A stretch of DNA of 31,107 nucleotides from a virus (IMGVR_UViG_2693429768_000006); one strand, 5' to 3'; shown: positions 1 to 15,027, numbered from the stretch's first letter. Numbers and translations are program-made. Notes: generated by a model not told the origin, from the sequence alone.

Positions 1-171
1 TCAATAAATCCCATCATTGCGATCAACCTCATCCTTAACCATTGATGCGAGCAGTTCTTCCAGTTTCTGCGCTGATAGCTTTACCTGGTGATCTTCAGCA
101 TCTTCCCGGGCTATTGTGGTTCGCGCAGTGGCTGATTTTGCTGACATCACCACAGGGGGCAGACGGACCAT
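1..171 (-). CDS. hypothetical small protein (56 aa from the Met with a GGAGG Shine-Dalgarno; the ORF-track version is 1..282)
   Basis: Minus-strand ORF ending in a stop at the window edge; internal ATG at 171 is preceded by GGAGG about 10 nt upstream. No family recognised. Confidence 0.2.
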   Translation of the reverse strand: MVRLPPVVMSAKSATARTTIAREDAEDHQVKLSAQKLEELLASMVKDEVDRNDGIY

Positions 172-237
172 TGAACCATGGCCTCCGGAACAAATAAGGG
201 CAAAAATAACAACCACTATCGAAAGCTCACAAACTAA

Positions 238-271
238 CCGCAGCACGTTCCTGCATACGACGTGTCTGCGG
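238..271. repeat. hairpin module downstream of tfa stop (copy 1 of 3, imperfect)
   Basis: CCGCAGCACG...CGTGTCTGCGG inverted repeat directly after the tfa stop; near-identical modules at 1288..1320 and 5218..5250. Confidence 0.5.
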
Positions 272-285
272 CATAATCCCAATGA

Positions 286-555
286 TTACTCCCTGACAGG
301 ATTTGCAGGCCACTCAATATCAGGTGCAGTTGATGTATCAACACGATTCAACAATACCCGATATTTATTCCATGCCTCCAGCAACGATCTTTCTTCCTCC
401 GTTGCGATTTCCAGATCTACAGCATCCTGCAGTGGCGCAATATACTCACTGAATTCCTGGATGTAGAACTGTGTGGTGACGGTCTTCCAGCCATTCGGCT
501 CCTGCTGTATCGAAGCATACCAGGCTATTTCAATATCGCTATGCTGCGGCAGCAT
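286..555 (-). CDS. tfa: tail fibre assembly protein, C-terminal domain only (Tfa-like, 89 aa, probably a remnant)
   Basis: Translation ends ...[37 protein letters not shown], the conserved C-terminus of lambda/Mu-type tail fibre assembly proteins; about half the length of the intact tfa genes at 2771..3298 and 3329..3862. Confidence 0.55.
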
Positions 556-563
556 TTAACCCC

Positions 564-592
564 TTGTAATTCATCGCCATAATTGATTTAAT
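564..592 (+). promoter_or_regulatory. candidate sigma70 promoter for the methyltransferase gene
   Basis: TTGTAA, 17-nt spacer, TTTAAT in an AT-rich spacer 20-50 nt upstream of the ATG; read by eye only. Confidence 0.25.
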
Positions 593-611
593 TCACAAAT
601 AAAACTATAAC

Positions 612-1280
612 ATGGTGAAATCAATGAAAAAAAACACAGATGATGGGGCTAAAATTTACACACCACTTACCCTAAAGCTTTATGACTGGTGGGTTTTGGG
701 AGTATCAAATCGGCTTGCATGGGGATGTCCTACAAAGGAACACCTTCTTCCACACTTTCTGGAACATGTAGGTAACAACCATCTGGATATTGGTGTTGGA
801 ACTGGGTTTTACCTTACTCACGTACCTGAGAGTAGTCTGATATCTTTAATGGATTTGAACGAAGCTAGCCTGAACGCGGCATCTACAAGGGCTGGGGAAT
901 CAAAAATTAAACATAAAATTAGCCATGATGTTTTTGAACCTTATCCCGCGGCGTTACATGGTCAATTTGATTCCATTTCCATGTTTTACCTTCTTCACTG
1001 CCTGCCTGGAAATATATCTACAAAAAGCTGTGTAATACGCAATGCGGCGCAGGCCTTAACTGACGATGGAACTCTATACGGAGCCACAATTCTTGGCGAT
1101 GGAGTTGTGCACAATAGCTTCGGTCAAAAACTGATGCGCATTTACAATCAGAAAGGCATCTTTTCAAACACAAAAGATTCCGAAGAAGGCTTAACACATA
1201 TACTCTCAGAGCATTTCGAGAATGTTAAAACCAAGGTTCAAGGTACTGTAGTAATGTTTTCCGCTTCAGGGAAAAAATAG
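612..1280 (+). CDS. class I SAM-dependent methyltransferase (moron; substrate unknown)
   Basis: 222-aa ORF with a Rossmann motif I, LDIGVGTGF, followed by an acidic residue (SLMDLNE). No DPPY/NPPY DNA-methyltransferase motif. Markedly AT-rich versus flanking phage genes. Alternative start at ATG 624 (MKKNTDD) has a better SD-like GGTGA. Confidence 0.75.
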   Translation: MVKSMKKNTDDGAKIYTPLTLKLYDWWVLGVSNRLAWGCPTKEHLLPHFLEHVGNNHLDIGVGTGFYLTHVPESSLISLMDLNEASLNAASTRAGESKIKHKISHDVFEPYPAALHGQFDSISMFYLLHCLPGNISTKSCVIRNAAQALTDDGTLYGATILGDGVVHNSFGQKLMRIYNQKGIFSNTKDSEEGLTHILSEHFENVKTKVQGTVVMFSASGKK

Positions 1281-1287
1281 CATCCAA

Positions 1288-1320
1288 CCGCAGCACGTTC
1301 TTGCTTAAGACGTGCTGCGG
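1288..1320. repeat. hairpin module (copy 2), between convergent methyltransferase and tfa remnant
   Basis: CCGCAGCACGTTCTT-GC-TTAAGACGTGCTGCGG, about a 14-bp stem; no U-tract on either side. Confidence 0.6.
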
Positions 1321-1478
1321 CATAATCCCAATGATTACTCCCTGACAGGGTTCGTAGGCCACTCAATATCAGGTGCAGTTGATGTATCAACACGGTTCAG
1401 CAACACCCGATACTTTTTCCAGGCTTCCACCACCAGCACGACAAGATGCCGCATACAGTGAACCAGTCAGTCCAGTTT

Positions 1479-1685
1479 TCAGACAACCAGTGCGTCACCT
1501 TTTTGAAGGCGCTTTAAAGCACGTTTTAATCCAGGTCGGCCTGTCCTTGTTCCGCTTAATTTATCTTCAAATATTTGTTCATATCCTGCACAAACAAGAG
1601 CGTTTCGTTGCAGATCTGTATTCTGGTCATTTGTTGATACCCTTACATAGCCAATCAGCACGCTGAATCTCCCGTCCAAAAGCAC
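1479..1685 (-). pseudogene. pin: serine DNA invertase (Pin/Gin/Hin/Cin family) 5' fragment, truncated by nonsense codons and fused to a tfa 3' remnant
   Basis: Translation ...VLIGYVRVSTNDQNTDLQRNALVCAGYEQIFEDKLSGTRTGRPGLKRALKRLQKGDALVV* matches the invertase N-terminus including the catalytic Ser region, then stops where Pin continues VWKLDRLGR. Downstream sequence switches to tfa 3' coding ([30 protein letters not shown]). Confidence 0.8.
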
Positions 1686-1715
1686 AAATCATGCCATACA
1701 GGCCAGAAACCGCCA

Positions 1716-1741
1716 TTATCTAAAACCTCGGTTTACAGGAA
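1716..1741. other. gix/pix-like 26-bp invertase crossover site (site L)
   Basis: TTATCTAAAACC-TC-GGTTTACAGGAA; two 12-bp half-sites around a 2-bp core, close to the Gin gix site as recalled from memory. Inverted relative to sites M and R. Confidence 0.7.
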
Positions 1742-1786
1742 ACGGTAAACAAGGCTGGTAACGCCGTTCAGCGTTCCGGCGATAAA

Positions 1787-2755
1787 ATGACCGGAGAACT
1801 GAAAATTGGCACGGTGAATGCGCTGCGAATTTTCAATGATGCCTTCGGTCTTATTTTCCGTCGTTCAGAAGATTTTCTTCATTTCATTCCGACGGCTGAA
1901 GGACAAGGCGAAAACGGTGATATAGGCCCATTAAGGCCATTCGCTATAAATCTGAGAACAGGTGCTATATCTGTCAGCCACGGGGCCAAAATTGATGGTG
2001 GGCTGGCGCTTGGTACAGATAACGCACTGGGCGGTAATTCCATTACTCTCGGAGATAACGACACTGGTATTAAACAGGGCGGCGACGGTGTCCTTTTATT
2101 CTATTCAAATGGACAACTGGCATTTGGACTTCAACCCGCATCTGCTGATTTTTATAAGCGGGTTGCATATATTCATCAGGGAATAATTCCTGATGGAAGT
2201 GGCGCATTTGCAGACCAGTTGAATAATGCCACCGCGCCTTTTGTTCAGACGCAGTTTGCCTGGAATCCCACTCCTGGTGGTCATTACGTGCCGATAGTTA
2301 AGGGCTTGTCCATTCGCAATGGACAGGGCTATCCCGGCGCGGTCAGCTTTGGGTATTTACTGACAGAACAGTATGGATTTCCGGTTCCATGTATTCATAT
2401 GCGTGGCGATGGCGGTAATGATGCTTTATGGCAGTTTAACCCGAACGATAAATCCTTTATTTCACCGGGTGCTCTTATTGCGGGTGGCGTCCGTTATAAC
2501 ACCGATGGAAATATATTTGGTGGGTGCTGGGGTTCAAACTTAAATGATTACCTGAATAGTTCTTTTATCAGAAATGTGCGTCTGGGAGGCAGACGTTCTG
2601 ACACATTATATCGCGGAGGACTTTGCGAACCAGGTAATGGTCATGTGACAACAGGATTGCAAATTATTGGTGAGGTTGATGGAGATGACTGGATGGTGTC
2701 ACGACCACTACAAAAATACATTTCTGGTAACTGGTATAACGTTGAACAGGCATAG
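1787..2755 (+). CDS. alternative side-tail-fibre C-terminal (variable) segment Sv', promoterless; frame is open from 1724
   Basis: Shares the GGNSI(T/V)LGDNDTG(I/F)KQ(G/N)GDG motif and C-terminal QKYIxGxWYNV with the other variable segment. The frame is open upstream to a TAA at 1721-1723 inside site L and reads L-G-L-Q-E across the crossover core. Confidence 0.7.
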   Translation: MTGELKIGTVNALRIFNDAFGLIFRRSEDFLHFIPTAEGQGENGDIGPLRPFAINLRTGAISVSHGAKIDGGLALGTDNALGGNSITLGDNDTGIKQGGDGVLLFYSNGQLAFGLQPASADFYKRVAYIHQGIIPDGSGAFADQLNNATAPFVQTQFAWNPTPGGHYVPIVKGLSIRNGQGYPGAVSFGYLLTEQYGFPVPCIHMRGDGGNDALWQFNPNDKSFISPGALIAGGVRYNTDGNIFGGCWGSNLNDYLNSSFIRNVRLGGRRSDTLYRGGLCEPGNGHVTTGLQIIGEVDGDDWMVSRPLQKYISGNWYNVEQA

Positions 2756-2770
2756 CCATCAGGAGAATAT

Positions 2771-3298
2771 ATGCAACATCTGAAAAATATTACCGCCGGA
2801 AACCCCAAAACCATTGAGCAGTATCAGCTTACGAAAAAAGCTGGCGTTATCTGGCTATATACAGAAGACGGTAAAAACTGGTATGACGAATTAAAAAACT
2901 TTCAGGATGATACTTTAAAAATAGCTTATGACCAGAAGGGGATTATTCGTTGTATTGAGAAAGACGTATCAACACTTAACCCTGACGGGTTAAGTGTTGT
3001 TGAGTTACCGAATATAACAGCCAACCGTCGCGCCGATATCTCGGGAAACTGGAAGTTTCTGGATGGTAAAGTAGTAAAGCGGGAATATACAAAACAGGAA
3101 CTGCAACAGCAGGCAGAGTTACAAAAAGCCGCTTTGCTTTCCGAAGCGGAGTCTGTGATTCAACCGCTGGAACGTGCTGTCAGACTGAATATGGCAACTG
3201 ATGAGGAACGCACACGACTGGAATCATGGGAACGCTACAGCGTTATGGTCAGCCGTGTGGATACTGCAAAGCCTGAATGGCCACAGAAACCAGAATAA
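2771..3298 (+). CDS. tfa: tail fibre assembly protein (cognate to Sv')
   Basis: 175-aa ORF with the Tfa N-terminus (MQHLKNI..., GVIWLY) and conserved C-terminus ([26 protein letters not shown]). Confidence 0.85.
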
Positions 3299-3304
3299 CA
3301 ACAA

Positions 3305-3329
3305 ATTAAGGCCCGTACGGGCCTTTTCT
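3305..3329. terminator. bidirectional hairpin between the convergent tfa genes
   Basis: AGGCCCGTACGGGCCT palindrome with T-rich sequence on both sides. Confidence 0.45.
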
Positions 3330-3862
3330 TATTCTGGTGGTTCCGGGAATGTTACAGGAAGAACCGAGGTATCAGTTGTCTCAACCTGTTGCACGTATCG
3401 CATCCAGTTCATCAGTTGCTGTCTGTCTGAATCAGTGATAATCCCCAAAGTAAGCTGTGTTTGCCAGAACTGCGTTTTTTCTCTGGCCTGCTGTAATAAT
3501 ATTTTTTTCTGGTTTTCCGTCTGTAGGCGCAACTCTTCTTCGGTATATACACGTTTAATGACTGCGCCATCTTTAAACATCCATTTACCTGAGTCGTCAG
3601 CACGCCGGTTGGCGGTAATATCAGGAATCTCAACGACGCTATAACCTTCAGGGTTAAGTGTGGAGGCATCTTTGGTTATGGCAACAATAATATTATTTTC
3701 ATCGTAAACAATCTTTATGGTGTCTGGCTGAAAGTTTTTCACTTCCTCATACCAGTTTTTTTCGTCCTCAGAGTAAAGCCAGATAACTCCGTGTTTCTTT
3801 GTTAACTCATACTGTTCCAGTGTTTTAGCATTACCCGCTTTTATGTTCTTTAAGTGCATCAT
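3329..3862 (-). CDS. tfa: tail fibre assembly protein (cognate to Sv)
   Basis: 177-aa [17 protein letters not shown]...GVIWLY..., same family as 2771..3298 but a divergent C-terminal half. Confidence 0.85.
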
Positions 3863-3863
3863 A

Positions 3864-4649
3864 TTAAACGCTCGCTACATTATACCAGGTGCCATTTATA
3901 TACTTTTGAACGGGTCTGTAATAAACGCCCGCTATATTATCGGCAGAGTTAGACCCTGTATCCTGAACATTAATACCAGACAATACATGACCTGAAGGGC
4001 ACCGGAAATACCATGTTTGCCAGTTGTTCACTCCATAATATTGCTGTGAACCAAGTCGAACATCTTTCACATAACGGGAATCAAAGTTACCGTAATCCGA
4101 GGGGTTAACACGCCCTGTAATATTTATGGTTTTATTACTTTGAATGCTTCCGGAGACAAAGCGCATAACATGGACGTTATTAGCATAAACATCCAGATTA
4201 CCATCGCCATTTTGTTTAAAGCCCGTGTCATTATCACCCAATACAATCGAATTACCGCCAAGAGCACTGGATGTTCCGATACCCAGTGTACCATTCAGTT
4301 GACCACCAGATAACGGCAGTGCACCAACATCTCCTGCTGAAGGTTTTCTGGTGGTGGTGTAAAATTCGGACCAGTCGGCTTCAAAACCATAACCATCACG
4401 GGCTGAACGATAAAAAACACCGCCATTTTTATAATTAATCCGAAACTGAGCTGCAGGACAACTTCCTTCTCCCATATAAAAATGAATAATTAACGTTGAT
4501 GCACCACTAATAGTTGCGTTATAGGCTCCGCTACTCCAGTTCCATCCAACTGCTTTATCATTCGCAACGGTGCTTCCTGTTTTCCCTAAGGCAAACGCAC
4601 CAACATGACTTGCTTTTAATGTGATATCGGAGGAACCATCAAAAGCCAC
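3864..4649 (-). CDS. side-tail-fibre C-terminal (variable) segment Sv, complete copy; frame is open up to 4814
   Basis: Identical to stf residues about 646-827 and then continues about 88 aa further ([14 protein letters not shown]...YNVASV). The frame is open upstream to an in-frame TAA within site M. Confidence 0.7.
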
Positions 4650-4813
4650 ATTGCTTATTTTCCTGGCAGTTTTTAATTTTGCAGCTGTAGAAGCATTGCC
4701 GGATAGTTCACCAGAAAGGCCACCGCTGAATGTTTGTCGATTAGTCCAGGTATTCGCTGTACTGAGTAACGGTATTTTCTCCCCGCTTGTGCCGAGTTCT
4801 CGTAAACCGAGGT
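4198..4813. repeat. direct repeat copy A (about 615 bp), identical to 5645..6259
   Basis: Aligned by eye at both ends and internally; diverges from copy B just right of the crossover core. Confidence 0.85.
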
Positions 4814-4822
4814 TTTAGATAA
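4797..4822. other. gix/pix-like crossover site (site M)
   Basis: TTCTCGTAAACC-GA-GGTTTTAGATAA; same orientation as site R, inverted relative to site L. The distal half carries the in-frame TAA. Confidence 0.7.
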
Positions 4823-4852
4823 TGGCGGTTTCTGGCCTGTATGGCATGATTT

Positions 4853-5059
4853 GTGCTTTTGGACGGGAGATTCAGCGTGCTGATTGGCTATGTAAGGGTA
4901 TCAACAAATGACCAGAATACAGATCTGCAACGAAACGCTCTTGTTTGTGCAGGATATGAACAAATATTTGAAGATAAATTAAGCGGAACAAGGACAGGCC
5001 GACCTGGATTAAAACGTGCTTTAAAGCGCCTTCAAAAAGGTGACGCACTGGTTGTCTGA
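4853..5059 (+). pseudogene. pin: serine DNA invertase 5' fragment (second copy, identical); likely GTG start at 4877 with a GGGAGA Shine-Dalgarno
   Basis: Identical 68-codon frame to 1479..1685; followed at about 5111..5203 by the tfa 3' remnant and at 5218..5250 by hairpin copy 3. Confidence 0.8.
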
Positions 5060-5261
5060 AAACTGGACTGACTGGTTCACTGTATGCGGCATCTTGTCGT
5101 GCTGGTGGTGGAAGCCTGGAAAAAGTATCGGGTGTTGCTGAACCGTGTTGATACATCAACTGCACCTGATATTGAGTGGCCTACGAACCCTGTCAGGGAG
5201 TAATCATTGGGATTATGCCGCAGCACGTCTTAAGCAAGAACGTGCTGCGGTTGGATGCTAT

Positions 5262-5643
5262 TTTTTCCCTGAAGCGGAAAACATTACTACAGTACCTTGA
5301 ACCTTGGTTTTAACATTCTCGAAATGCTCTGAGAGTATATGTGTTAAGCCTTCTTCGGAATCTTTTGTGTTTGAAAAGATGCCTTTCTGATTGTAAATGC
5401 GCATCAGTTTTTGACCGAAGCTATTGTGCACAACTCCATCGCCAAGAATTGTGGCTCCGTATAGAGTTCCATCGTCAGTTAAGGCCTGCGCCGCATTGCG
5501 TATTACACAGCTTTTTGTAGATATATTTCCAGGCAGGCAGTGAAGAAGGTAAAACATGGAAATGGAATCAAATTGACCATGTAACGCCGCGGGATAAGGT
5601 TCAAAAACATCATGGCTAATTTTATGTTTAATTTTTGATTCCC
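5262..5643 (-). pseudogene. methyltransferase 3' fragment (residues ~96-222), inverted duplicate of 895..1280
   Basis: Translation ESKIKHKISHDVFEPYPAALHGQ...SASGKK is identical to the C-terminal part of the 612..1280 product. The ORF-track N-terminal extension (5644..5740) is stf DNA read out of frame. Confidence 0.8.
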
Positions 5644-8135
5644 ATACCATCGCCATTTTGTTTAAAGCCCGTGTCATTATCACCCAATACAATCGAATTA
5701 CCGCCAAGAGCACTGGATGTTCCGATACCCAGTGTACCATTCAGTTGACCACCAGATAACGGCAGTGCACCAACATCTCCTGCTGAAGGTTTTCTGGTGG
5801 TGGTGTAAAATTCGGACCAGTCGGCTTCAAAACCATAACCATCACGGGCTGAACGATAAAAAACACCGCCATTTTTATAATTAATCCGAAACTGAGCTGC
5901 AGGACAACTTCCTTCTCCCATATAAAAATGAATAATTAACGTTGATGCACCACTAATAGTTGCGTTATAGGCTCCGCTACTCCAGTTCCATCCAACTGCT
6001 TTATCATTCGCAACGGTGCTTCCTGTTTTCCCTAAGGCAAACGCACCAACATGACTTGCTTTTAATGTGATATCGGAGGAACCATCAAAAGCCACATTGC
6101 TTATTTTCCTGGCAGTTTTTAATTTTGCAGCTGTAGAAGCATTGCCGGATAGTTCACCAGAAAGGCCACCGCTGAATGTTTGTCGATTAGTCCAGGTATT
6201 CGCTGTACTGAGTAACGGTATTTTCTCCCCGCTTGTGCCGAGTTCTCGTAAACCGAGGTATTCGATAACGGCGGCAACGGTCGATTTCGCAAGAATATCC
6301 CGCCCAACTTTTGTCAGGGTTGCCAGACTGGCAACATCATTCCCCGTAAAATACGGAAACCTGTCTGCCGCAGTAGCAAGCCCGGCCAGCGCCGTCAGGG
6401 TGGCATCTTTCGGTTGCTTACCCGCAAGCGCGTTAGTCATGGTGGTCGCAAAATTCGGGTCGTTGCCCAACGCCGCAGCCAGCTCGTTCAGCGTATTCAG
6501 TGCGTCAGGCGACGAGTCCACGAGGGCAGCGATCGCAGCCATAACATAAGCCGTGCTTGCGATTTGGGTATTATTCGTTCCCTGTCGCGCAGTTGGTGTT
6601 GTTGGCGTTCCGGTCAGTGCAGGACTATTTAAGGGCGCTTTCTTGTTCGTTTCACCCATTACCGCCTTAACCGCTTTTGGCGTTGCCGCCAGTGACTCGG
6701 AAGTGCTGTTGGTCGCACTGCTGAGCTGTACTATCCCCTTTTTCGTCGTGCTCGCATCCTCCAGCGCCACGGCGGATGCAATATCCTCTGCCCGTTTTGC
6801 TGCTGTCTCGGCGCGCGTTGCCGCGGATTCCGCCGTACTTTTGCTCTGAGCTGCCGCCGTCACACTACCAGCTGCCTCTGATGCTTTCATTGTTGCTGTC
6901 GTGGCACTACCTTTCGCTGCTGACGCTTGTCTGGTCGCCTCATCTTTTGAAGCAGACGCAGATGATGCCGATGACGCCGCTGAACTGGCTGACGATGCGG
7001 CTGCCGCCTTAGAGGAAGCAGCATTGTCTGCTGAAGTCTTTGCATTTGTTTCAGAGGTTTTTGCTGCAGAAGCAGACCTCGCTGCTGCAGTGGCTTGCTC
7101 AGTGGCTTTGCCAGCCTTCGTTGTGGCTGTTGAAGCGGATGATGCGGCGCTTTCTGCCGATTTTCCGGCGGCGGTGGCACTGGCTGAGGCCTGCCCGGCA
7201 CTTGTTGACGCGGCACTGGCAGACGACGCAGCCGCTGTTTTTGAGCCTGCCGCAGCCGAGGCGCTCTGTCCCGCTGCCGTTTCAGAAGACCTGGCGTTTG
7301 TCTCAGACGTCTTTGCCGCCTTCGCGGAATTGCCTGCCGCCGTTGCCGAGGAAGCGGCACTACTGGCGCTTGATGATGCGTTCGTTTCTGATGATTTCGC
7401 TGCCTCTTTTGAGGCCGCCGCACCCCGTGCCGAGGTGGCAGCTTCTGACGCCTTCGTGGTCGCTGTGGATGCAGAAGTGGCTGCCGATTTTTGTGATGCT
7501 GCGGCATTCGTTTCTGACGTTTTCGCGGCACTGGCGCTGGTAGCTGCCGCGCTTTTTGATGACTCTGCAGCAGCAGCACTTTTTGCTGCTTCACGGGCCT
7601 TTGTCGATGCCGTTCCTGCGCTGGAAGACGCTGACTGAGCCGACGACGCGGCCTGTCCGGCTGACGTGCTGGCGGCACGTGCTGAGGCTGCAGCATCGGT
7701 TGCATGAGTTGCCGCCTCGCTGGCTGATGCACTGGCATCGCTGGCTGATTTTTTCGCGGCTGCCGTATTCTGTGCAACCGCGGAGGCGTTACGTGACACC
7801 TCTTCCACCATCTGCTCAAAGCGGCGCAGTGCCTCCGGTCGGACATCATCCTCCGTCATGGCACCGAGAAAATCATTCAGCGTACCTGGTCTGGAACCTT
7901 CATAGACGGTAATGGTCCCGGCATGTGAAGGCGGAAAACCTTCAACCAGCAGGGTGACGCTGTACTGACCATGCTCAACATCCATGCTGTAACGTCCGGC
8001 TTCATCCGGATTTTCAGAGGCCACCGTGTTCACCACCACCGTGCTGCTGGTTCGTCTGGCCTTCAGCACAATGGTGCAGTTCTGTACTGGTTTTCCTGTG
8101 CCATCTTTAAGCACGCCAGAAATTTTTACTGTCAT
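5628..8135 (-). CDS. stf: side tail fibre protein Stf (lambda Stf homologue), C-terminally truncated in this configuration
   Basis: N-terminus MTVKISGVLKDGTGKPVQNCTIVLKARR... matches lambda Stf, with a long Ala/Ser/Thr-rich central region. The ORF ends ...[15 protein letters not shown] where it joins methyltransferase-derived DNA at about 5644. Confidence 0.85.
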   Translation of the reverse strand: MTVKISGVLKDGTGKPVQNCTIVLKARRTSSTVVVNTVASENPDEAGRYSMDVEHGQYSVTLLVEGFPPSHAGTITVYEGSRPGTLNDFLGAMTEDDVRPEALRRFEQMVEEVSRNASAVAQNTAAAKKSASDASASASEAATHATDAAASARAASTSAGQAASSAQSASSSAGTASTKAREAAKSAAAAESSKSAAATSASAAKTSETNAAASQKSAATSASTATTKASEAATSARGAAASKEAAKSSETNASSSASSAASSATAAGNSAKAAKTSETNARSSETAAGQSASAAAGSKTAAASSASAASTSAGQASASATAAGKSAESAASSASTATTKAGKATEQATAAARSASAAKTSETNAKTSADNAASSKAAAASSASSAASSASSASASKDEATRQASAAKGSATTATMKASEAAGSVTAAAQSKSTAESAATRAETAAKRAEDIASAVALEDASTTKKGIVQLSSATNSTSESLAATPKAVKAVMGETNKKAPLNSPALTGTPTTPTARQGTNNTQIASTAYVMAAIAALVDSSPDALNTLNELAAALGNDPNFATTMTNALAGKQPKDATLTALAGLATAADRFPYFTGNDVASLATLTKVGRDILAKSTVAAVIEYLGLRELGTSGEKIPLLSTANTWTNRQTFSGGLSGELSGNASTAAKLKTARKISNVAFDGSSDITLKASHVGAFALGKTGSTVANDKAVGWNWSSGAYNATISGASTLIIHFYMGEGSCPAAQFRINYKNGGVFYRSARDGYGFEADWSEFYTTTRKPSAGDVGALPLSGGQLNGTLGIGTSSALGGNSIVLGDNDTGFKQNGDGMGIKN
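5645..6259. repeat. direct repeat copy B (within stf)
   Basis: Identical to 4198..4813. Confidence 0.85.
6243..6268. other. gix/pix-like crossover site inside stf (site R)
   Basis: TTCTCGTAAACC-GA-GGTATTCGATAA; the constant-side half encodes V-I-E-Y of Stf and the core encodes L-G. Confidence 0.65.
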
Positions 8136-8159
8136 ACTTTTCCACCAATAAAAAAAGCC

Positions 8160-8191
8160 CGCAGCAGTGACGCCACGGGCTTCAGGACAGT
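8160..8191 (-). terminator. candidate rho-independent terminator after lom
   Basis: Stem AGCCCG/CGGGCT with a 14-nt loop, followed on the minus strand by a 7-U run; sits just upstream of the stf start. Confidence 0.35.
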
Positions 8192-8286
8192 GTAACTTTA
8201 CGTTTCCTCAAACGCAGTTCACCCCATAAGGTGGATGAACCTGCGTATCATAACAATATTTACAGAAGATAAATCGGCGTCTGTTG

Positions 8287-8886
8287 TCAGAAACGGTATC
8301 CGATACCAACAATAAATGCATCCGTTCGCCAGTCGCCACTACCGGAACCTTCATAAGCAAGGTCAATGGTCACGGATTCGGTCGGGTTAAACTGCACGCC
8401 AGCCCCCCACGCCAGAGACGTGTTGCTGTGGCGACCGTCATCACTTCCGGTCAGCACATCGTGCGTTTTCCCCTTGTTGTCAGTTACGCGGAGATAATCC
8501 CCGGAGAAAGTCGACACACGGCTGTAAGCCACACCCGCCATCGCATACGCGCTGAACCATTCATTCACGCGCACAGACGGCCCCGCCATCACGCTGAACC
8601 AGCGGTTACGCACGGAATCTTCATGCCAGCGGGTATCGCTGTAATGCGTTTTTTGCTCATCTTTGGCATTGGCATAACTGAATGACGTCACCAGCCCCAG
8701 CGTGTCCGTAAACTCATAACGGTATTTCACGTTAATCCCGTTCAGATCATCACTACCGGGAACGTTCGTCGAGGCATGGAGATACCCCGCGCTCAGCGTG
8801 GACTGATGTTCTGCTGCACTCGCTGGCGTAGCAGCGGCGACCTGCCAGACTACTGCGGACAAAATAACAGCACATAATTTACGCAT
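8287..8886 (-). CDS. lom: Lom-like outer membrane protein (Ail/Lom/PagC family), moron
   Basis: 199-aa ORF with a signal peptide and C-terminal ...GIGYRF; same position as lambda lom between J and stf. Confidence 0.85.
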   Translation of the reverse strand: MRKLCAVILSAVVWQVAAATPASAAEHQSTLSAGYLHASTNVPGSDDLNGINVKYRYEFTDTLGLVTSFSYANAKDEQKTHYSDTRWHEDSVRNRWFSVMAGPSVRVNEWFSAYAMAGVAYSRVSTFSGDYLRVTDNKGKTHDVLTGSDDGRHSNTSLAWGAGVQFNPTESVTIDLAYEGSGSGDWRTDAFIVGIGYRF

Positions 8887-8910
8887 AATTACCTCTCGCT
8901 TTTCTGCAAT

Positions 8911-8934
8911 AAAAAAGGCGCCATTTCTGGCGCC
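8911..8934 (-). terminator. rho-independent terminator downstream of J
   Basis: GGCGCCA-TTTC-TGGCGCC perfect 7-bp GC stem followed on the minus strand by a 6-U run. Confidence 0.6.
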
Positions 8935-8953
8935 CGTATCTGGGTTATAAAAT

Positions 8954-11900
8954 TCAGCTAATCGTGATGCCTGCAGTGGCTTTCTTCATCACCACAACCA
9001 GCAAATCGCTGATACTTGCTGTGGGATACCAGTTATTTACCAGCCATGCTGACACCGAAAACTCCAGTGTCATGTGACCGTGACCGGCAGGCATATCAAT
9101 AACACCACTGTAAATCAGCGTATTATCCAGCGCGGTACGGTTATAAATTTCAGCACCGTTTTTCCGCACTATCAGACGGCATGAGGAGTAAATATCAGTA
9201 TGCTCTTTCTCATGTTTAGCGCCGCTGAATGCCACCGCCGGAATAACAATCTGCCGGTCAAACGGCTGATCGTCATAAACCCTGACGGTAATGGTTCCTG
9301 ATGGCCACCGCTCCGGTGCACGGGAGTCCCGGGGGAAAGCTTTGCCCACTGTTTTAACGAGATCGCCTTCAATCTGGTTCGCGGACAATTTTCCCAGAAC
9401 CCGACAGTTCTCGTTAATCGTGACGTTGTTGAGCGTCCCGGAGTTCGCATTCACGTTACCGCTGATATCGGCATTTTTCGCCGTCAGCCGCCCGTCCGGT
9501 GTCAGGGAAAATGCCGGAGGATTACCGCCGCTGGTAATGGTGGGAGCCGTCAGATATTTCAGGAACACTTCATTCATAAATATCTGATCGCCCTGACCAA
9601 CAAACATCGGCTTTGTGTTGCCATTCGCAGGATTAATCATCGCAATCCTGTCTGCCGCCAGCAGCACCTGACTCTGCATTCCTGCTGGCGTATTCTCAAT
9701 ACCGGCACCGATACCCGCAATATAAAGGCGTCCGTCCTGCATCTGCTGCAGTTTCACGGCCCACATGCTGTTCAGGTTATTATTTGTATCAACCTGAACT
9801 TTCTGTATCTGCTGGATTGCCGCACTCTGATTTTCCAGTTTTTTATTGACGGTCTGCGTGATTTCATTGCTGACATTCGTAATGGACGTCCTGATTTCAG
9901 CCAGGTCCGGCGCAAGCTGACCGTTATCAATCTGCGTCCACAGCTCCTGGGCCAGATGTGTTTTCCCGATTTCTCCTTTGAAAAAATCCAGGTAACCTTC
10001 CGCATCATCGCTCGCCCGACCGACAGCCTCCACGAATGCCGATTTGCCAACAGTATTCACACTGCGGATATAAAAATAATAATCATGGCCCGGTTTGATA
10101 TTGATACTGGCAGCTATCCAGTACAGCGCCGAGCCAAGATAGCGGGCTGCGGTTTCAACCTGCCTGATATCCGCAATCCGCTTTTCCGAGAACCAGAACT
10201 CAAACTGTACCGTCGGGTCATAAACGGCAAGATGTGGCGTTGCGGTTATCTGAAAATAGCCCGGCGTCAGCTCAATCCGCGACGGTGCTGCCGGTGCGGT
10301 AATCCGGAAGGTGGTGGTGGCAGGTTCACCCTGCTGGCCATAGCTGTTTATCGCCCGCACCGTCAGGGTGTATTCCCCGAGCGGCAGGCCGCTGAAACGG
10401 TGCTCCGTGTCTGCGGTGATGGCGGTGGTCACCAGTCTGGCATCCGTTCCCTTACCACTGGTCAGGCGCAGACTGAAGCGCACACCCTTCACCACCCGCG
10501 GCGTGTCCCATTTCGCCTGCGCCAGATACTGGCCGTCAGCTGCGCTCACCTCCACCGTCAGGTGCTGCACTGCCGGTGGGATGACGCTGTTCAGGGAACC
10601 TGACTGCGGCTCAAAGCGGGCACCGTTATCCACGATGGCTTCTTTTTCCGGTACGTGCTGCACCGCCGTGATGGCAAAGGTGCCGTCCGTGTTTTCCCGG
10701 ATGGAGACACAGCGGAACAGGCGACGGCGCAGTGACGGCAGGGAGAGTCCCCACACCCCGTATGTCTCCACACCATCAGGCAGGGTACTGACCTGTATCC
10801 GGTCCGGCGCGGGGTGTTCGGTGATGTCCACACTCACCGGCTTACCGCTGCCGTTAATCAGGTTCACCGTGGCGGCACCGGTCTCCGGCAGGGTAACCTC
10901 ACGGTCCAGCGTCAGGGTGCGGGTGGCAGCATCAATGGACAGGACACGTCCGCCGGTCAGGGTCCCGGCATAGTCATTATCACAGATTTCAATAATGTCA
11001 CCGGGTGTGTGCCGCAGCCCCTGAGACCCGAGCGTGAAATCCACCGTCTGCGTTTCCAGCAGTTCGGTCTTTATCACCCACAGTCCGGCACGGTGGGCCT
11101 GACCGCGGCTGGTACAGCCGAACGCGTCCATCTTCAGCAGATTGCGCCCGTAGCGCAGTATGGCTTCCGGGTCTTCCACCAGCTCCGTGGAGGTCTGCCA
11201 GCCGTTCTGCGGGTCGGTGTAATTCACCTCCACCGCCGTGTGCCGGTCCTTCAGGGCACTGAAGCTGTAGCGGAACCCCACGCCGTTATCATCCACCACC
11301 ACATCGCTGTTGGTGTACGGCCACACCACATCCGACAGGCGGTCCTGAACAAACGTCAGCATCTGGCCGTTCCATACCGGCATACAGCGCATCGCCGAGC
11401 AGAAATCACTGAGAACATCCCACGCCTTACGCTGTTGTGCCAGGTACGCATTGAAGGTCATCCGCGGCTCGGTGCCCCCGAAGCCATCCGGCACCATCTG
11501 GTCGCAGTACTGCCCGATGGCATACAGCGCCCACTTGTCCACATCCGCCGCCCCCAGACGTTTTCCCATGCCGTAGCGCGGGTGAGTCAGCATGTCCCAC
11601 AGACACCAAGCCGGATTGTTGCTGTATGCCGGTTTCAGACTGCCGTCCCAGATACCACTGTACGTGCGTTTTTCCGGGTCATAGTTTGACGGCACCTGGA
11701 TGATGCGACCGCGGATATGGTAGTTCACCGTCATCTGCTGACCACCAAACTGCTCCGCATCCACCTGCATCCCCACAATGGCCGTGTTCGGGTAGCACTG
11801 TTTCACATCGATGATTTCGGTGTATGACGACCACAGCGTTCTGTTCTGCAGCTGGTCCGTGGTGCTGTCCGCCGTCTCCCTGACCATCCGGATGTTAAAG

Positions 11901-12427
11901 GGGCGGGGAGGCAGATTATCCAGAATCACCGAGGCCAGGAACTGTGAGGTGGTCTTGCCGTTAATGGTGACATCCTTTTCTGTCACCCAGTTACCGTTAC
12001 GCTGTAACTGAATCAGCAGACGGACAGAGGACGGATTACGGTCACCCTTTGACGTGGTCTCCACCAGTGACTGCACCCCGAAGGTCACCCGCAGGCGGTC
12101 AATGTTCGCTGACGTAATGGTGCGTGTTACCGGTTTTGCCCTGGTCACTTCGACACCCAGTACAGTTTCAGAGCCGGAGGACTCAAAGCCTTCCGGTGGT
12201 GTCTGCTCCTGCTCCCCGGCACGCCAGACCGCGGTCACACCGTGTATCACGGGATTACCGTCCGTGTCCGTCAGCGGGGTTTTGTTCACCAGAATACTCT
12301 GCAGGCCTTTCACCGGGCCATCTATCGGCCCCTCACCAATCGCATCAATCACGCTCATCATCTGCGTGGATTTGAGATTGTCTTTCGCCTCACGCGGTGT
12401 GTGCGCCTTGCCGCCACCTTTGCCCAT
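8954..12427 (-). CDS. J: tail tip / host specificity protein J
   Basis: 1157 aa; strong similarity to lambda gpJ from the N-terminus ([22 protein letters not shown]...) through the conserved core. C-terminal ~150 aa diverge from lambda. Confidence 0.95.
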
Positions 12428-12494
12428 TACATCACCTCTTACCGTGATAATTGTTCACTCACAAAAACAACAGGCACCTCACCGGGTGCCTGCG

Positions 12495-12620
12495 TCATGA
12501 CGGAATAAAATTTCTGAATATCTTCACATTTTCACACACTGACTGTGGCGCGTATAATTTCACTGCGTTAGTGTTTTTTTGCCCGAGTAACAAAAACAAC
12601 TCCTTCACATTGATCTTCAT
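12495..12620 (-). CDS. candidate 41-aa ORF in the I-J intergenic insert
   Basis: ATG at 12620 to TGA at 12495 (MKINVKELFLLLGQKNTNAVKLYAPQSVCENVKIFRNFIPS); weak SD; overlapped antisense by the candidate RNA. Confidence 0.15.
   Translation of the reverse strand: MKINVKELFLLLGQKNTNAVKLYAPQSVCENVKIFRNFIPS
12531..12558 (+). promoter_or_regulatory. candidate sigma70 promoter (TTCACA, 16-nt spacer, TATAAT)
   Basis: Perfect -10 hexamer TATAAT at 12553-12558 with a 5/6 -35; points rightward into a terminator about 100 nt away. Confidence 0.4.
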
Positions 12621-12662
12621 TTGTCTGTCCCCGCAGCTCCGCGATCACTGCGGGATTTTTTT
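12565..12662 (+). ncRNA. candidate ~100-nt small RNA (promoter-to-terminator unit), antisense to the small ORF start
   Basis: Bounded by the promoter above and an intrinsic terminator; no plus-strand ORF with a plausible start lies between them. Confidence 0.3.
12629..12662 (+). terminator. rho-independent terminator (plus strand)
   Basis: CCCGCAG...CTGCGGG stem followed by ATTTTTTTA. Confidence 0.5.
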
Positions 12663-12667
12663 ATGTT

Positions 12668-13348
12668 TTATCCCTGTCGCCCGATAACCACGACCTTTCC
12701 GCCCCCGCCTTCATCACGGGTGCTGATGTCCTGGGATATACGGCGGGAGCCAACCAGCATTTCCCCGTAAGGCACCGGCATCGAGTTCCCCTGGGCAATC
12801 ATGTTATCCAGCGAGGAAAAGTACGTGTTCTGTCTGCCGTTATCCGTTGCGCGGTAATCCGGTGTTTTTGCCTTCGGGGCCAGCATCTGGGCCACACCGC
12901 CCAGAATCATGCTGGCTCCAAGTGAAAACAGCATCGTGGTGGCAGAAAAACCACCGGCTGCCAGGGCTGAACCCCATAACGCCATTGATGCCCCGGCAGT
13001 GAAGAAAGAGCCCACGATGGCTGCCGCCCCCAACACAATCTGCAGTCCACCCTTTCCGGCCCCGGCCAGTCGCGGCACAATGTGGATGACCGTTCCCTCA
13101 CCCAGCTGTTCGTGAAGGCGGGCGTACACCACCTCCGGTGCCGTGTCTTCACCGGCAATACGTATCTGGTACCAGCCTTCGTTCATCTGAAGGCGAAAGC
13201 CCGGCATCTGCATCGACAGGGCGCGAATGGCTTCCGCTGCCGTGTTCACATACAGGCTGAGGCGGCGGCCAAATCGTTGTAAATCCCCGTGAAGGCAGAT
13301 GTGTGCCAGTGGCGGTGACGCCAGACAGAATGCGTTCGTCGTTGCCAT
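12668..13348 (-). CDS. I: tail assembly protein I
   Basis: 226 aa; matches lambda gpI (ICLHGDLQRFGRR, GAAAIVGSFFTAGA, NTYFSSLDNM). Confidence 0.9.
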   Translation of the reverse strand: MATTNAFCLASPPLAHICLHGDLQRFGRRLSLYVNTAAEAIRALSMQMPGFRLQMNEGWYQIRIAGEDTAPEVVYARLHEQLGEGTVIHIVPRLAGAGKGGLQIVLGAAAIVGSFFTAGASMALWGSALAAGGFSATTMLFSLGASMILGGVAQMLAPKAKTPDYRATDNGRQNTYFSSLDNMIAQGNSMPVPYGEMLVGSRRISQDISTRDEGGGGKVVVIGRQG

Positions 13349-13989
13349 TTTTCGGAATACCTCTCCCGTTTACTCAGTTGTTCAGGAATATGGTGAAGCA
13401 GTTCACCGTTGCCGCAGTAAATGGCGGCATGATTAGCCACCGATGCGCCGAAGCAGCACAGCAGGATATCGCCCGGCTGTGCAGAGGACAGGGGCACCCG
13501 GTAAAAGCCGGTGACTGCCATATTGTCCAGGTACAGGTTCTGGCCGTTGCGCCACCAGTCATCCTCGCGATGAAAATCCGGCATATCAATTCCCGCCAGA
13601 TGGTATGCATCCCGGAACAGCGTGTAACAGTCCGTCACCCCGTGCTCAAAGCGCCGTCCTGTCAGATGTGGCACACAGCAGAATTTATGAATTTCCCCCC
13701 GGCAGACCAGCCACCAGGGCAGTGCGCTTTTTATCTGCAGCCGCCGGTCAGCCTCGCTCAGCCAGGGCAGCTCACCGGGATGACTGTGGACCAGTGCCAC
13801 AATCTCCCCCTGTATCTCTGCCCGCAGCCAGTCTTCCGGTGCGATACGAAAATACGCCTCCGGCTCTGCGGAAATATTCACACAAGGGATATACCGCTCC
13901 CCCTCCGGCGTGCTTATCACGAAGCCGCACGACTCCGCAGGCGCACACCGCCGGGCATGCGCCAGAATCGCTGATTCAGTCTGTGTCAT
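13246..13989 (-). CDS. K: tail assembly protein K (JAMM/MPN plus NlpC/P60 domains)
   Basis: Start taken at MTQTESAILAHARRCAPAESCGF (matches lambda gpK), not the upstream ATG of the ORF track. HSHPGELPWLSEAD JAMM motif and GVTDCYTLF Cys motif present. Confidence 0.85.
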   Translation of the reverse strand: MTQTESAILAHARRCAPAESCGFVISTPEGERYIPCVNISAEPEAYFRIAPEDWLRAEIQGEIVALVHSHPGELPWLSEADRRLQIKSALPWWLVCRGEIHKFCCVPHLTGRRFEHGVTDCYTLFRDAYHLAGIDMPDFHREDDWWRNGQNLYLDNMAVTGFYRVPLSSAQPGDILLCCFGASVANHAAIYCGNGELLHHIPEQLSKRERYSEKWQRRTHSVWRHRHWHTSAFTGIYNDLAAASACM

Positions 13990-13999
13990 AAACCGGGAT

Positions 14000-14698
14000 T
14001 TACTGCGAAAGTTTATTAATGGAAAGGAAACCGCCAAAATTGCCGACATTCCTGCGCAGTTCACACCCGCGCATGCACTTGCTGCATCTGTCCTTACGGA
14101 TATCCGTGGTGGGTTTATCGAACTCATCCGCCACAGCCCCGCCCGTGTAACCACACTCATCAGAGCGGTAGGTCCACATACAGGTGTTCGCCAGCATGAT
14201 ACGACCGGGAAACTGCGCTCCGTCCGTCTCGGTCGGTGTGGCCAGCACAAACGAGGCCGTCATGGCTGTCAGCTGCGACATCTGCTCCACCACCCAGCGG
14301 TCGCTCAGCTCCTGCTCCGGGTCCGCTTCCGGATTGCCCGCCACAAAATTCACCGCATCCAGAAAACGGGCATACACCCGGCGGCGGACCACCGTGGCCC
14401 CCACCAGACTCTGCAGGTCTTCCGCCATCCCGGTGACAAGGCCGAACAGATTGGACACCGTCAGCGACGGTCTGGCACTGCTGCCTTTCCCGTTCATTTC
14501 AAAGCCGCTGCCATCAATCGGGTACGCCTCATACTTACGCCCCTGCCAGGTGACCGGCTCCCCTTTTTCATTCAGCTCATTACAGAAAAAATACCGCTCA
14601 CCACCCTGTACCGTCAGGTCGATTTCCCAGAGTACCACCCGCGGTGACTGCTCTGACTTAACCGACTCGTTCAGACTTTCTTCGCGAATATCCTGCAT
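14000..14698 (-). CDS. L: tail tip assembly protein L
   Basis: 232 aa; MQDIREESLNE...GNFGGFLSINKLSQ matches lambda gpL end to end. Confidence 0.95.
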   Translation of the reverse strand: MQDIREESLNESVKSEQSPRVVLWEIDLTVQGGERYFFCNELNEKGEPVTWQGRKYEAYPIDGSGFEMNGKGSSARPSLTVSNLFGLVTGMAEDLQSLVGATVVRRRVYARFLDAVNFVAGNPEADPEQELSDRWVVEQMSQLTAMTASFVLATPTETDGAQFPGRIMLANTCMWTYRSDECGYTGGAVADEFDKPTTDIRKDRCSKCMRGCELRRNVGNFGGFLSINKLSQ

Positions 14699-15027
14699 CA
14701 GTTCACCACCTGCTTAAACTCCGCGCTGAACTCAACGCGCAACATCCCGACCCGCGCAGACCACCCGGCACAGGTCACCTTTATCTGCCGGTATGCATAG
14801 GGTGGCTTCCACAAAAATGCCTTCCAGCCACCGTGCTCTGCCAGGAACGCTTCCAGATGCCGGGCCTCCTCCCGGGTCACGGAAAGCGTCACCCTGTATG
14901 TTTTCAGGTCAGCATTCAGCCCTGCCGCCATACGCTGTGAGTACCCGTCACCAAAACGCACTTCACGCACCGATGGCTGCGAGTTCACCTCCATATCCGG
15001 CTTCACTTTCCAGCGAAAGGTTTTCAT
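14698..15027 (-). CDS. M: tail tip protein M
   Basis: 109 aa; MKTFRWKVKP...LRVEFSAEFKQVVN matches lambda gpM. Confidence 0.95.
   Translation of the reverse strand: MKTFRWKVKPDMEVNSQPSVREVRFGDGYSQRMAAGLNADLKTYRVTLSVTREEARHLEAFLAEHGGWKAFLWKPPYAYRQIKVTCAGWSARVGMLRVEFSAEFKQVVN

Follow-up and report, generated by a model that had tools for sequence, protein, structure and literature searches.

A private extra copy of 1,446 nt truncates the side tail fibre gene (stf) of this prophage and is, on balance, probably an assembly artefact arising from a culture of mixed segment orientation. We lean towards this reading over a genuine duplication followed by inversion, with an assembly history of the record that we infer. 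The window, that is the whole stretch of DNA that was analysed (31,107 nt), represents a lambdoid prophage of the "Phi4" type at the ompW/trp locus of Escherichia coli, a prophage described in EC958 (Forde 2014, PLoS One 9:e104400, PMC4134206). It contains a Pin/Gin-type invertible fibre segment (V) of ~3.1 kb with 26-bp crossover sites, in which the alternative C-terminal fibre segments stand as mirror images, each with its own tfa gene: Sv'/tfa' on the plus strand and tfa/Sv on the minus strand. The features of the region are as follows.

612..1280, plus strand: intact methyltransferase gene; 222 aa, class I SAM-dependent, Pfam Methyltransf_12/23/25
895..1741: inverted-repeat arm 1, with the methyltransferase 3' part, a tfa 3' fragment, the invertase remnant and P1
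1479..1685, minus strand: invertase (pin-like) remnant, copy 1; Pfam Resolvase, profile positions 2-69 of 145, with the tfa 3' fragment next to it
1716..1741, minus strand: crossover site P1, invertase side/Sv' side; minus strand TTCCTGTAAACC GA GGTTTTAGATAA
1742..4796: invertible segment V, 3,055 nt; ORFs with Caudo_TAP and gp37_C domains (Pfam)
1787-2755, plus strand: Sv', within segment V
2771-3298, plus strand: tfa', within segment V
3329-3862, minus strand: tfa, within segment V
3864-4796, minus strand: Sv, within segment V
4199..4813: direct-repeat copy 1, exact over 615 nt; contains the 5' part of the intact Sv together with the crossover site's left half and core
4797..4822, plus strand: crossover site P2, TTCTCGTAAACC GA GGTTTTAGATAA; exact hybrid of the P3 left half and the P1 right half
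4797..5643: inverted-repeat arm 2 (extra copy), comprising a second invertase remnant, a tfa fragment and the 3' fragment of the methyltransferase
4853-5059, plus strand: invertase remnant, copy 2, within inverted-repeat arm 2
5258-5643, minus strand: extra copy of the methyltransferase 3' fragment, within inverted-repeat arm 2
5258..5740, minus strand: chimeric ORF of 160 aa; out-of-frame Sv codons plus the C-terminal 129 aa of the methyltransferase
5628..8135, minus strand: truncated stf, 835 aa; 830 native residues followed by MGIKN and a stop, Pfam phage_tail_N
5644: junction J, one orphan base with a template in neither parent
5645..6259: direct-repeat copy 2; 5' part of Sv in in-frame fusion to the constant part of stf
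6243..6268, plus strand: crossover site P3, Sv side/stf constant side; TTCTCGTAAACC GA GGTATTCGATAA

The three crossover sites share the central dinucleotide GA/TC, score 26/26 each against the local crossover consensus and match the sites of Phi4 (Forde 2014, Table 3, PMC4134206), P2 being identical to the EC958 Phi4_3prime site. The inverted 26-bp sites, whose half-sites are conserved and whose central dinucleotide is identical, correspond to a switch of the Gin/Pin/Cin/Hin type, as does the occurrence of two orientations with exchanged half-sites. The junction of the invertase with Sv' was found in 152 genomes and that with Sv in 376. Segment V is present in either orientation among genomes that differ by 0-3 nt over 21 kb, and its orientation also varies among ST131 isolates of the same series. 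The orientation of the Phi4 segment is mixed in culture, and orientation mixtures of about 50:50 are reported (Forde 2014, PMC4134206). Inversion at the locus is thus clearly active despite the truncated invertase.

The pieces assigned to the insert by the earlier note (pin, tfa and methyltransferase) are all present, but the "pin" gene is only a remnant of 60-68 aa in which the resolvase catalytic domain is reduced to its N-terminal part. A Pfam profile search revealed no HTH domain in this remnant, and the serine invertase adjacent to the switch is thus not intact. Relatives carry at the same position an annotated 60-aa "recombinase family protein" (WP_001421220.1). Any site-specific step would therefore need an invertase acting in trans; the invertase of Phi4 is likewise truncated and is served in trans (Forde 2014, PMC4134206). 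Approximately 200 nt of the 5' end of the invertase gene are kept, and a Fis-dependent enhancer could survive there. The methyltransferase, annotated as WP_000240999.1 in relatives and found in ~3,800 of the 5,426 complete E. coli genomes, is a cargo gene adjoining the switch, the 3' 386 nt of which (895-1280) are duplicated.

The direct repeat, previously placed at 4198-4813 and 5645-6259, is indeed exact over 615 bp, but its first copy starts one base later, at 4199. It ends sharply, with not one further base matching on either side. The inverted repeat (895-1741 versus 4797-5643) extends over 847 nt, and its sole mismatches, at 1737 and 1738, both fall within the half-site of a 26-bp crossover site. 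Chance falls far short of explaining exact repeats of 615 and ~842 nt. The exchange of half-sites at the central GA of P2 is, from its sequence, apparently the product of an invertase. Junction J, which is marked by the 36-mer GTTTAATTTTTGATTCCCATACCATCGCCATTTTGT, can be read alternatively as methyltransferase T893 followed by a GGGG shortened to GGG. No usable microhomology was found at the join, including the GG that had been proposed.

The exact repeats and the reading frame confirm that stf is truncated at the duplication junction. Its C-terminal end reads ...NGDG-MGIKN*, and the loss amounts to 111 residues instead of the ~88 first estimated, as 830 retained residues plus 111 make up the 941 aa found in relatives and after deletion in silico. 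The intact homologue has 941 aa in the R state and 968 aa in the F state. A complete Sv exists, as had been stated for 3864..4649, but it runs from ~4809, in the crossover site, down to 3864; the interval 3864-4649 is a mechanical ORF counted from its first GTG. Deletion between the 615-nt repeats, or between the directly oriented sites at 4797 and 6243, regains in silico the full 941-aa fibre, with at most one residue different from the closest relatives. A single deletion thus restores the fibre, as anticipated, but it is not the only way, because inversion alone also does so and yields the 968-aa Sv' type. From the three perfect crossover sites of the record, four arrangements are reachable in silico, with fibres of 835, 835, 968 and 941 aa. 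The chimeric ORF has no Pfam match, lacks the SAM-binding N-terminal half of the methyltransferase and probably encodes a meaningless product.

Once the 1,446 nt are removed, the window matches two public assemblies (L016 and L017) at 100% identity over 20,981 nt, and the rest of the window (29.6 kb) displays zero indels with respect to its relatives. The insert-free state, for which a search of related genomes had been suggested, was found in all nine loci shown, L016 and L017 included, out of 24 contigs read that encode an identical J protein. Junction J had no match in the 5,426 complete E. coli genomes, the GTDB representative genomes, the IMG/VR viral contigs, the INPHARED phage records or the JGI metagenome contigs, the last searched with a pattern allowing 0-3 junction bases. 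Exact look-ups of the truncated Stf protein and of the chimeric ORF product gave no record. The absence of the junction from all searched sets and the relatives lacking the insert count for the artefact reading. The prophage end is full of older fibre and tfa remnants. EC24, at 99.98% identity over 22 kb, carries another fibre cassette, which is non-invertible.

An artefact of the following kind would account for the structure. The culture would have been mixed for the two orientations of segment V, flipped in trans by the invertase of another prophage. Reads of one orientation may have carried a long-read assembly path into the 3.1-kb segment from its invertase side, and reverse-strand reads of the other orientation out of it again, which would generate the hybrid P2 and the inverted second stretch of invertase and methyltransferase. 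The path would have run out within the methyltransferase copy (895), wherever a read happened to end. Closure or the merging of contigs would then have set this contig end against the start of a contig that begins 615 nt into the segment (4199). On this view, the 615-nt direct repeat would be a true overlap left undetected and the 831 nt at 4814-5644 a fold-back overhang. The truncated stf would be an artefact as well, the real gene encoding a fibre of 941 aa, or one of 968 aa when the segment has the opposite orientation.

Spurious alternate-allele contigs were reported for Phi1, Phi2 and Phi4, together with the warning that integrating such contigs gives rise to phage-region duplications that are artefactual (Forde 2014, PMC4134206). 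The RefSeq genome WS3294A (NZ_CP035819.1) has at the same locus a 16.5-kb untrimmed overlap of its end and start, and the sole structural difference between the overlapping copies is the orientation of the 3.1-kb segment. The mixed cultures, the warning and this precedent all count for the artefact reading. The window displays the combination expected from such an event: a crossover junction of the alternate orientation on one side, a join at an arbitrary point without homology on the other, identical copies, and relatives that lack the extra copy. The missing microhomology points in the same direction, as does the orphan base, which can be read as a wrong homopolymer length (GGG in place of GGGG) 3 nt away from the join. 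In addition, both end points of the junction lie at most 0.85 kb from a crossover site, which a contig break explains and a random duplication does not. The repeat-induced artefact that the earlier note had offered as a caveat is therefore judged the slightly likelier reading, given the private junction and the precedent of WS3294A.

Several points argue against it. The junction is internal to the record, so that a closure or merge plus rotation or merging must be postulated, whereas mainstream pipelines (Unicycler, Flye, Circlator) do not usually join ends in such a manner. Its end points also do not coincide with branch points of a graph. The consensus quality elsewhere in the record is excellent, with no further sign of poor assembly. 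Moreover, two ordinary biological events derive the structure just as exactly. These would constitute a very recent, private rearrangement, which we regard as a real possibility that falls somewhat short of an even chance. It would comprise a tandem duplication of 1,445 nt in the flipped (F) orientation and a subsequent inversion. The duplicated stretch would start at position 895 in the methyltransferase, span the invertase remnant and the crossover site, and take in the first 598 nt of Sv. Illegitimate recombination, with the addition of 1 nt where the ends met, would have produced the duplication and with it the third crossover site. Inversion between the outer sites, either by a trans-acting invertase or by RecA on the inverted 615-nt copies, would then disperse the copies and fuse stf to the junction.

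Replay of these steps in silico (flipping the segment, duplicating 1,445 nt with 1 nt added, inverting between the outer sites) yielded a sequence that agrees with the window at every base. This agreement cannot tell the two readings apart, however, because a fold-back path abutted to the contig start is formally equivalent to a tandem duplication in the flipped state plus inversion, and it cannot prove a biological origin. The genuine rearrangement is favoured by P2, a perfect hybrid of P3 left and P1 right at the central GA as an invertase would make, and by the active inversion of the locus, seen in near-identical genomes, in ST131 isolates and in culture. Its end points are arbitrary and off the repeat boundaries, as illegitimate recombination predicts, and the older fibre and tfa remnants at the prophage end indicate that real rearrangements accumulate here. 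The illegitimate recombination suggested earlier is nevertheless only one possible reading, since the junction resembles two abutted contig ends equally well. Among spontaneous duplications in E. coli, joins without microhomology and with an orphan base are atypical. The rearrangement is also confined to one record with otherwise identical relatives, and it requires a rare event that coincidentally spans the very boundary known to confuse assemblers.

That the third site is real, and that a two-state host-range switch has just become a four-state one by local duplication, is somewhat less likely than not. If true, a trans-acting invertase could switch the side fibre among four forms, two of different receptor-binding type and two truncated ones (OFF).

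Two further origins of the junction were considered. Action of an invertase at quasi crossover sites at 895 and 4199 is extremely improbable. Cin has been described to act at quasi-cix sites, and a trans-acting invertase is evidently active at the locus, but the parent sites have no common central dinucleotide and the join contains an orphan base. The 26-mers centred on 895, 4199 and J score 10-13/26, compared with 26/26 for the real sites. A short-read graph-branch artefact, in which a repeat shared with a second prophage of the same genome was collapsed or mis-resolved, is likewise very unlikely. Fibre 5' parts and the methyltransferase do occur in several prophages per genome. Partial matches in the 5,426 genomes, however, end at query positions 61-105, 249-342 and 331, all of them away from the junction, and 4199 and 895 are not homology breakpoints among the fibre and methyltransferase paralogues of these genomes. 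With end points away from any branch point of a graph, the common artefact of de Bruijn-graph assembly is excluded; short-read assemblers would, we infer, also collapse exact repeats of 615 and 842 nt instead of writing out both copies.

The switch at this locus is already published, and the extra copy is ordinary whichever reading holds. Side tail fibres are dispensable for particle formation, and a truncated stf would thus be tolerated. With the extra copy private to one record, the biological stakes are small. The case rather serves as a quality flag, in that prophage fibre segments that invert in culture yield duplicated, gene-truncating sequence in "finished" genomes. Together with WS3294A, it implies that a truncated stf beside crossover sites, without read support, is no evidence of prophage decay.

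A truncated side tail fibre in a lambdoid phage is also known from lambda PaPa, where the cause is not a duplication junction but a 1-nt frameshift in stf, reportedly described by Hendrix and Duda in 1992 and fixed in the laboratory lineage. WS3294A shares with the window the duplication of the same prophage end and the opposite orientation of the invertible segment in the two copies. There, the duplication covers 16.5 kb at the record end and start with copies 13 indels apart, whereas that of the window is internal, covers 1.4 kb and has identical copies. WS3294A was the only clean example of a comparable artefact. The idea that public records tend to begin here owing to assembler breaks gained no support from record starts, as Ecol_AZ146 starts at an IS21 gene and LS4 in trpCF.

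The G (Mu), C (P1) and P (e14) systems use the serine invertases Gin, Cin and Pin, which complement each other. In these systems the constant 5' part of the fibre is joined over a 26-bp site to either of two mirror-image Sv-tfa cassettes by exchange at a central dinucleotide; they are said to be reviewed by Sandmeier (1994). The window shares this fibre-cassette architecture and differs in its invertase stump of 60-68 aa and its three sites. The Min system of plasmid p15B and the shufflons contain many diverged cassettes that are maintained by selection. They resemble the window in having more than two crossover sites and several arrangements, some of which alter or disable the expressed fibre. 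By contrast, the third site of the window is either an artefact or a recent copy with 100% identity, and adds non-functional states only. If the duplication is real, it would be a first step towards extra crossover sites and multi-state inversion, a snapshot of how systems like Min (p15B) arise through crossover-site duplication. The closest counterpart is EC958 Phi4, with the same prophage type at the same ompW/trp locus, 26-bp sites, a ~3.1-kb segment, an invertase in trans and a mixed culture. In EC958 and all other relatives examined, the crossover sites number two and the fibre is full-length, whereas the window has a third, hybrid site, 1,446 nt extra and a truncated stf.

The window carries the tail end of a lambdoid prophage, in which the reading of the open reading frames (ORFs) places, from right to left, J, a lom-like gene, stf, the fibre-switch region and the prophage end. 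The tail genes and the three 26-bp crossover sites of the invertible tail-fibre segment (P1 to P3) are as follows:

8954-12427, minus strand: J
8287-8886, minus strand: lom-like gene
5628-8135, minus strand: stf, the side tail-fibre gene
1716-1741, minus strand: P1, TTCCTGTAAACC GA GGTTTTAGATAA
4797-4822: P2, TTCTCGTAAACC GA GGTTTTAGATAA
6243-6268: P3, TTCTCGTAAACC GA GGTATTCGATAA

The stf product consists of 830 native residues followed by MGIKN and a stop. After GDG, the intact copy in Sv, one of the two mirror-image fibre cassettes (Sv/tfa and Sv'/tfa'), continues for 111 further residues, and the sum, 941 aa, is the fibre length in relatives; the truncation therefore removes 111 C-terminal residues rather than the approximately 88 proposed from the sequence at first reading. 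Lambdoid phages tolerate a truncated side fibre, as in lambda PaPa. The adjacent lom-like gene is intact in the window, and in ST131 relatives, including EC958 and Ecol_AZ146, it is interrupted by the IS21-family element ISEc12.

In the closest complete genomes, MLI121 and WS3294A, the prophage sits between yciE/ompW' and the tail genes, and the annotated order runs from a class I SAM-dependent methyltransferase through a 60-aa 'recombinase family protein' and two mirror-image fibre-tip/tfa cassettes to a 941-aa 'prophage tail fiber N-terminal domain-containing protein'. Pfam hits in the window comprise phage_tail_N, gp37_C, Caudo_TAP (twice) and methyltransferase domains, and the resolvase match of the invertase stump is limited to positions 2-69 of 145. 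P2 is composed exactly of the left half of P3 and the right half of P1, joined at the central dinucleotide, and is identical to the Phi4_3prime site of EC958, which carries the same arrangement at 1.48 Mb. This is prophage Phi4, with a 3,106-bp invertible segment and 26-bp crossover sites; its invertase is too truncated to work and inversion must come in trans, probably via the Phi1 invertase, and its orientations are mixed within one culture, giving rise to spurious PacBio contigs (Forde et al. 2014; PMC4134206).

Among complete E. coli genomes, the invertase-site-Sv' junction of one orientation (R state) occurs in 152, the invertase-site-Sv junction of the other (F state) in 376, and the Sv-site-constant junction in 330. 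The state varies within one ST131 isolate series (strains 4/0 and 2/0 are R, 4/1-1 and 4/4 are F) and among contigs that encode an identical J protein and differ from the window by 0-3 nt over 20,981 nt (R in L016, L017, L018 and L020; F in L013, L015 and L019). These sequence comparisons indicate that the switch is active in nature.

The direct repeat described in the earlier note exists, as an exact match of 615 nt between 4199-4813 and 5645-6259 that stops at those limits to the base. A second, inverted repeat of 847 nt pairs 895-1741 with the reverse complement of 4797-5643, with mismatches only at 1737 and 1738 because the half-sites of the crossover sites differ. The join at 5644, where stf meets the extra methyltransferase copy, has no microhomology, contrary to the GG first suggested, and contains one orphan base. 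One reading of this base is methyltransferase T893 with the GGGG after it shortened to GGG, which would be an error in homopolymer length 3 nt away from the join; against relatives, the rest of the record is free of indels over 29.6 kb. Both end points lie at most 0.85 kb from a crossover site. Crossover-like sites at 4199 and 895 were rejected as an origin, since both score only 10-13 of 26 and neither resembles a crossover site. A graph-type assembly artefact was rejected too: among paralogues in the 5,426 genomes, homology does not break off at either position.

Deletion of 4814-6259 (1,446 nt) in silico brings back the 941-aa stf, as had been claimed for a single deletion. The resulting sequence differs from MLI121 at 3 of 7,554 positions and is 100% identical over 20,981 nt to L016 (GCA_966564115.1) and L017 (GCA_000357945.2), so that the insert is private to this record. 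The junction is present in none of the 5,426 complete E. coli genomes, though perfect matches to either half by itself are frequent in them, and has no match in GTDB representatives, IMG/VR, JGI metagenomes or INPHARED; database look-up found neither the truncated Stf protein nor the 160-aa chimeric ORF.

The arrangement was replayed in silico from the window minus the insert by flipping the segment between P1 and P3 to the F state, duplicating F-coordinates 895-2339 (1,445 nt) in tandem with a single T added at the join, and inverting between the outermost sites. The product equals the window base for base. This exact replay does not discriminate an artefact from a real event, because a fold-back assembly path with an abutted contig yields the same string. 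Starting from the window, one P1xP3 inversion generates an Sv'-type fibre of full length (968 aa), P2xP3 inversion after it generates the Sv-type fibre of 941 aa, and a P1xP2 flip leaves stf unaffected (all in silico); a single inversion, besides the single deletion, thus also restores a full-length fibre.

We lean towards an assembly artefact as the source of the extra copy. The assembly path would run from the flank through the invertase and P1 into the segment, leave it along reads from the reverse strand of the opposite orientation into P2 and the inverted invertase/methyltransferase stretch, and stop at an arbitrary read end; abutted to a contig whose start lies 615 nt inside the segment, it would give the string of the window. 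The locus is documented as heterogeneous in culture and a source of spurious contigs, and artefactual duplications at such segments are explicitly warned of (Forde et al. 2014; PMC4134206). The lack of microhomology, the orphan base in an otherwise indel-free record and the proximity of both end points to crossover sites point the same way, as does the WS3294A record, in which an untrimmed overlap has duplicated this prophage end. A genuine duplication with inversion is plausible, if short of probable: because the join does not lie at a record end, an artefact needs an unusual closure or merge step; the consensus is of excellent quality; the positions of the end points are arbitrary, as illegitimate recombination would leave them; and several older fibre and tfa remnants are already found at this prophage end.

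The WS3294A record (NZ_CP035819.1, 'complete' in RefSeq) contains 16.5 kb of this prophage end at both its end (4979691-4996164) and its start (1-16461). The copies share 99.9% identity with 13 gap openings and are collinear save for the 3.1-kb invertible segment, which lies in opposite orientation. This duplication is a circular overlap that escaped trimming, and J, lom, stf and other genes are therefore annotated twice. In many ST131 complete-genome records the locus lies at ~18.5-18.8 kb, which places position 1 inside this prophage, near the terminase genes (window ~27,600), and suggests that a phage gene was taken as the origin when a start-fixing tool rotated the chromosomes. The main use of the finding is as a warning on assemblies at invertible prophage segments; the feature itself, which the earlier note read correctly, is odd and of low value.

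The tfa 3' end is present twice at the prophage end, in copies 91% identical, one fused directly behind the truncated invertase, and an 89-aa tfa C-terminal fragment is also found there. These nested remnants (window 236-383 and 1286-1432; 286-555; 1281-1478) are traces of earlier fibre-cassette replacements. In EC24 (NZ_CM169477.1) the prophage body is the same, differing by 4 substitutions over 22,107 nt and by no indel; where the window has the invertible cassette (compared over 1-9000), EC24 has a non-invertible 1,025-aa stf and a 194-aa tfa directly abutting the methyltransferase. Between these otherwise identical prophages, the entire fibre module has been exchanged. At ≥95% identity, ~3,800 of the 5,426 complete E. 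coli genomes carry the methyltransferase (612-1280), a much larger number than have this fibre cassette, and it is apparently a cargo gene of prophage ends that is widely conserved.

Functionally, the locus is a classical Gin/Pin/Cin-type fibre switch, specifically of the published EC958 Phi4 type, and thus nothing new in kind; it has the features of that class except an intact adjacent invertase. The third site would formally place it, as a small example, among multi-site inversion systems such as Min of p15B, but the added states comprise truncated fibres only.
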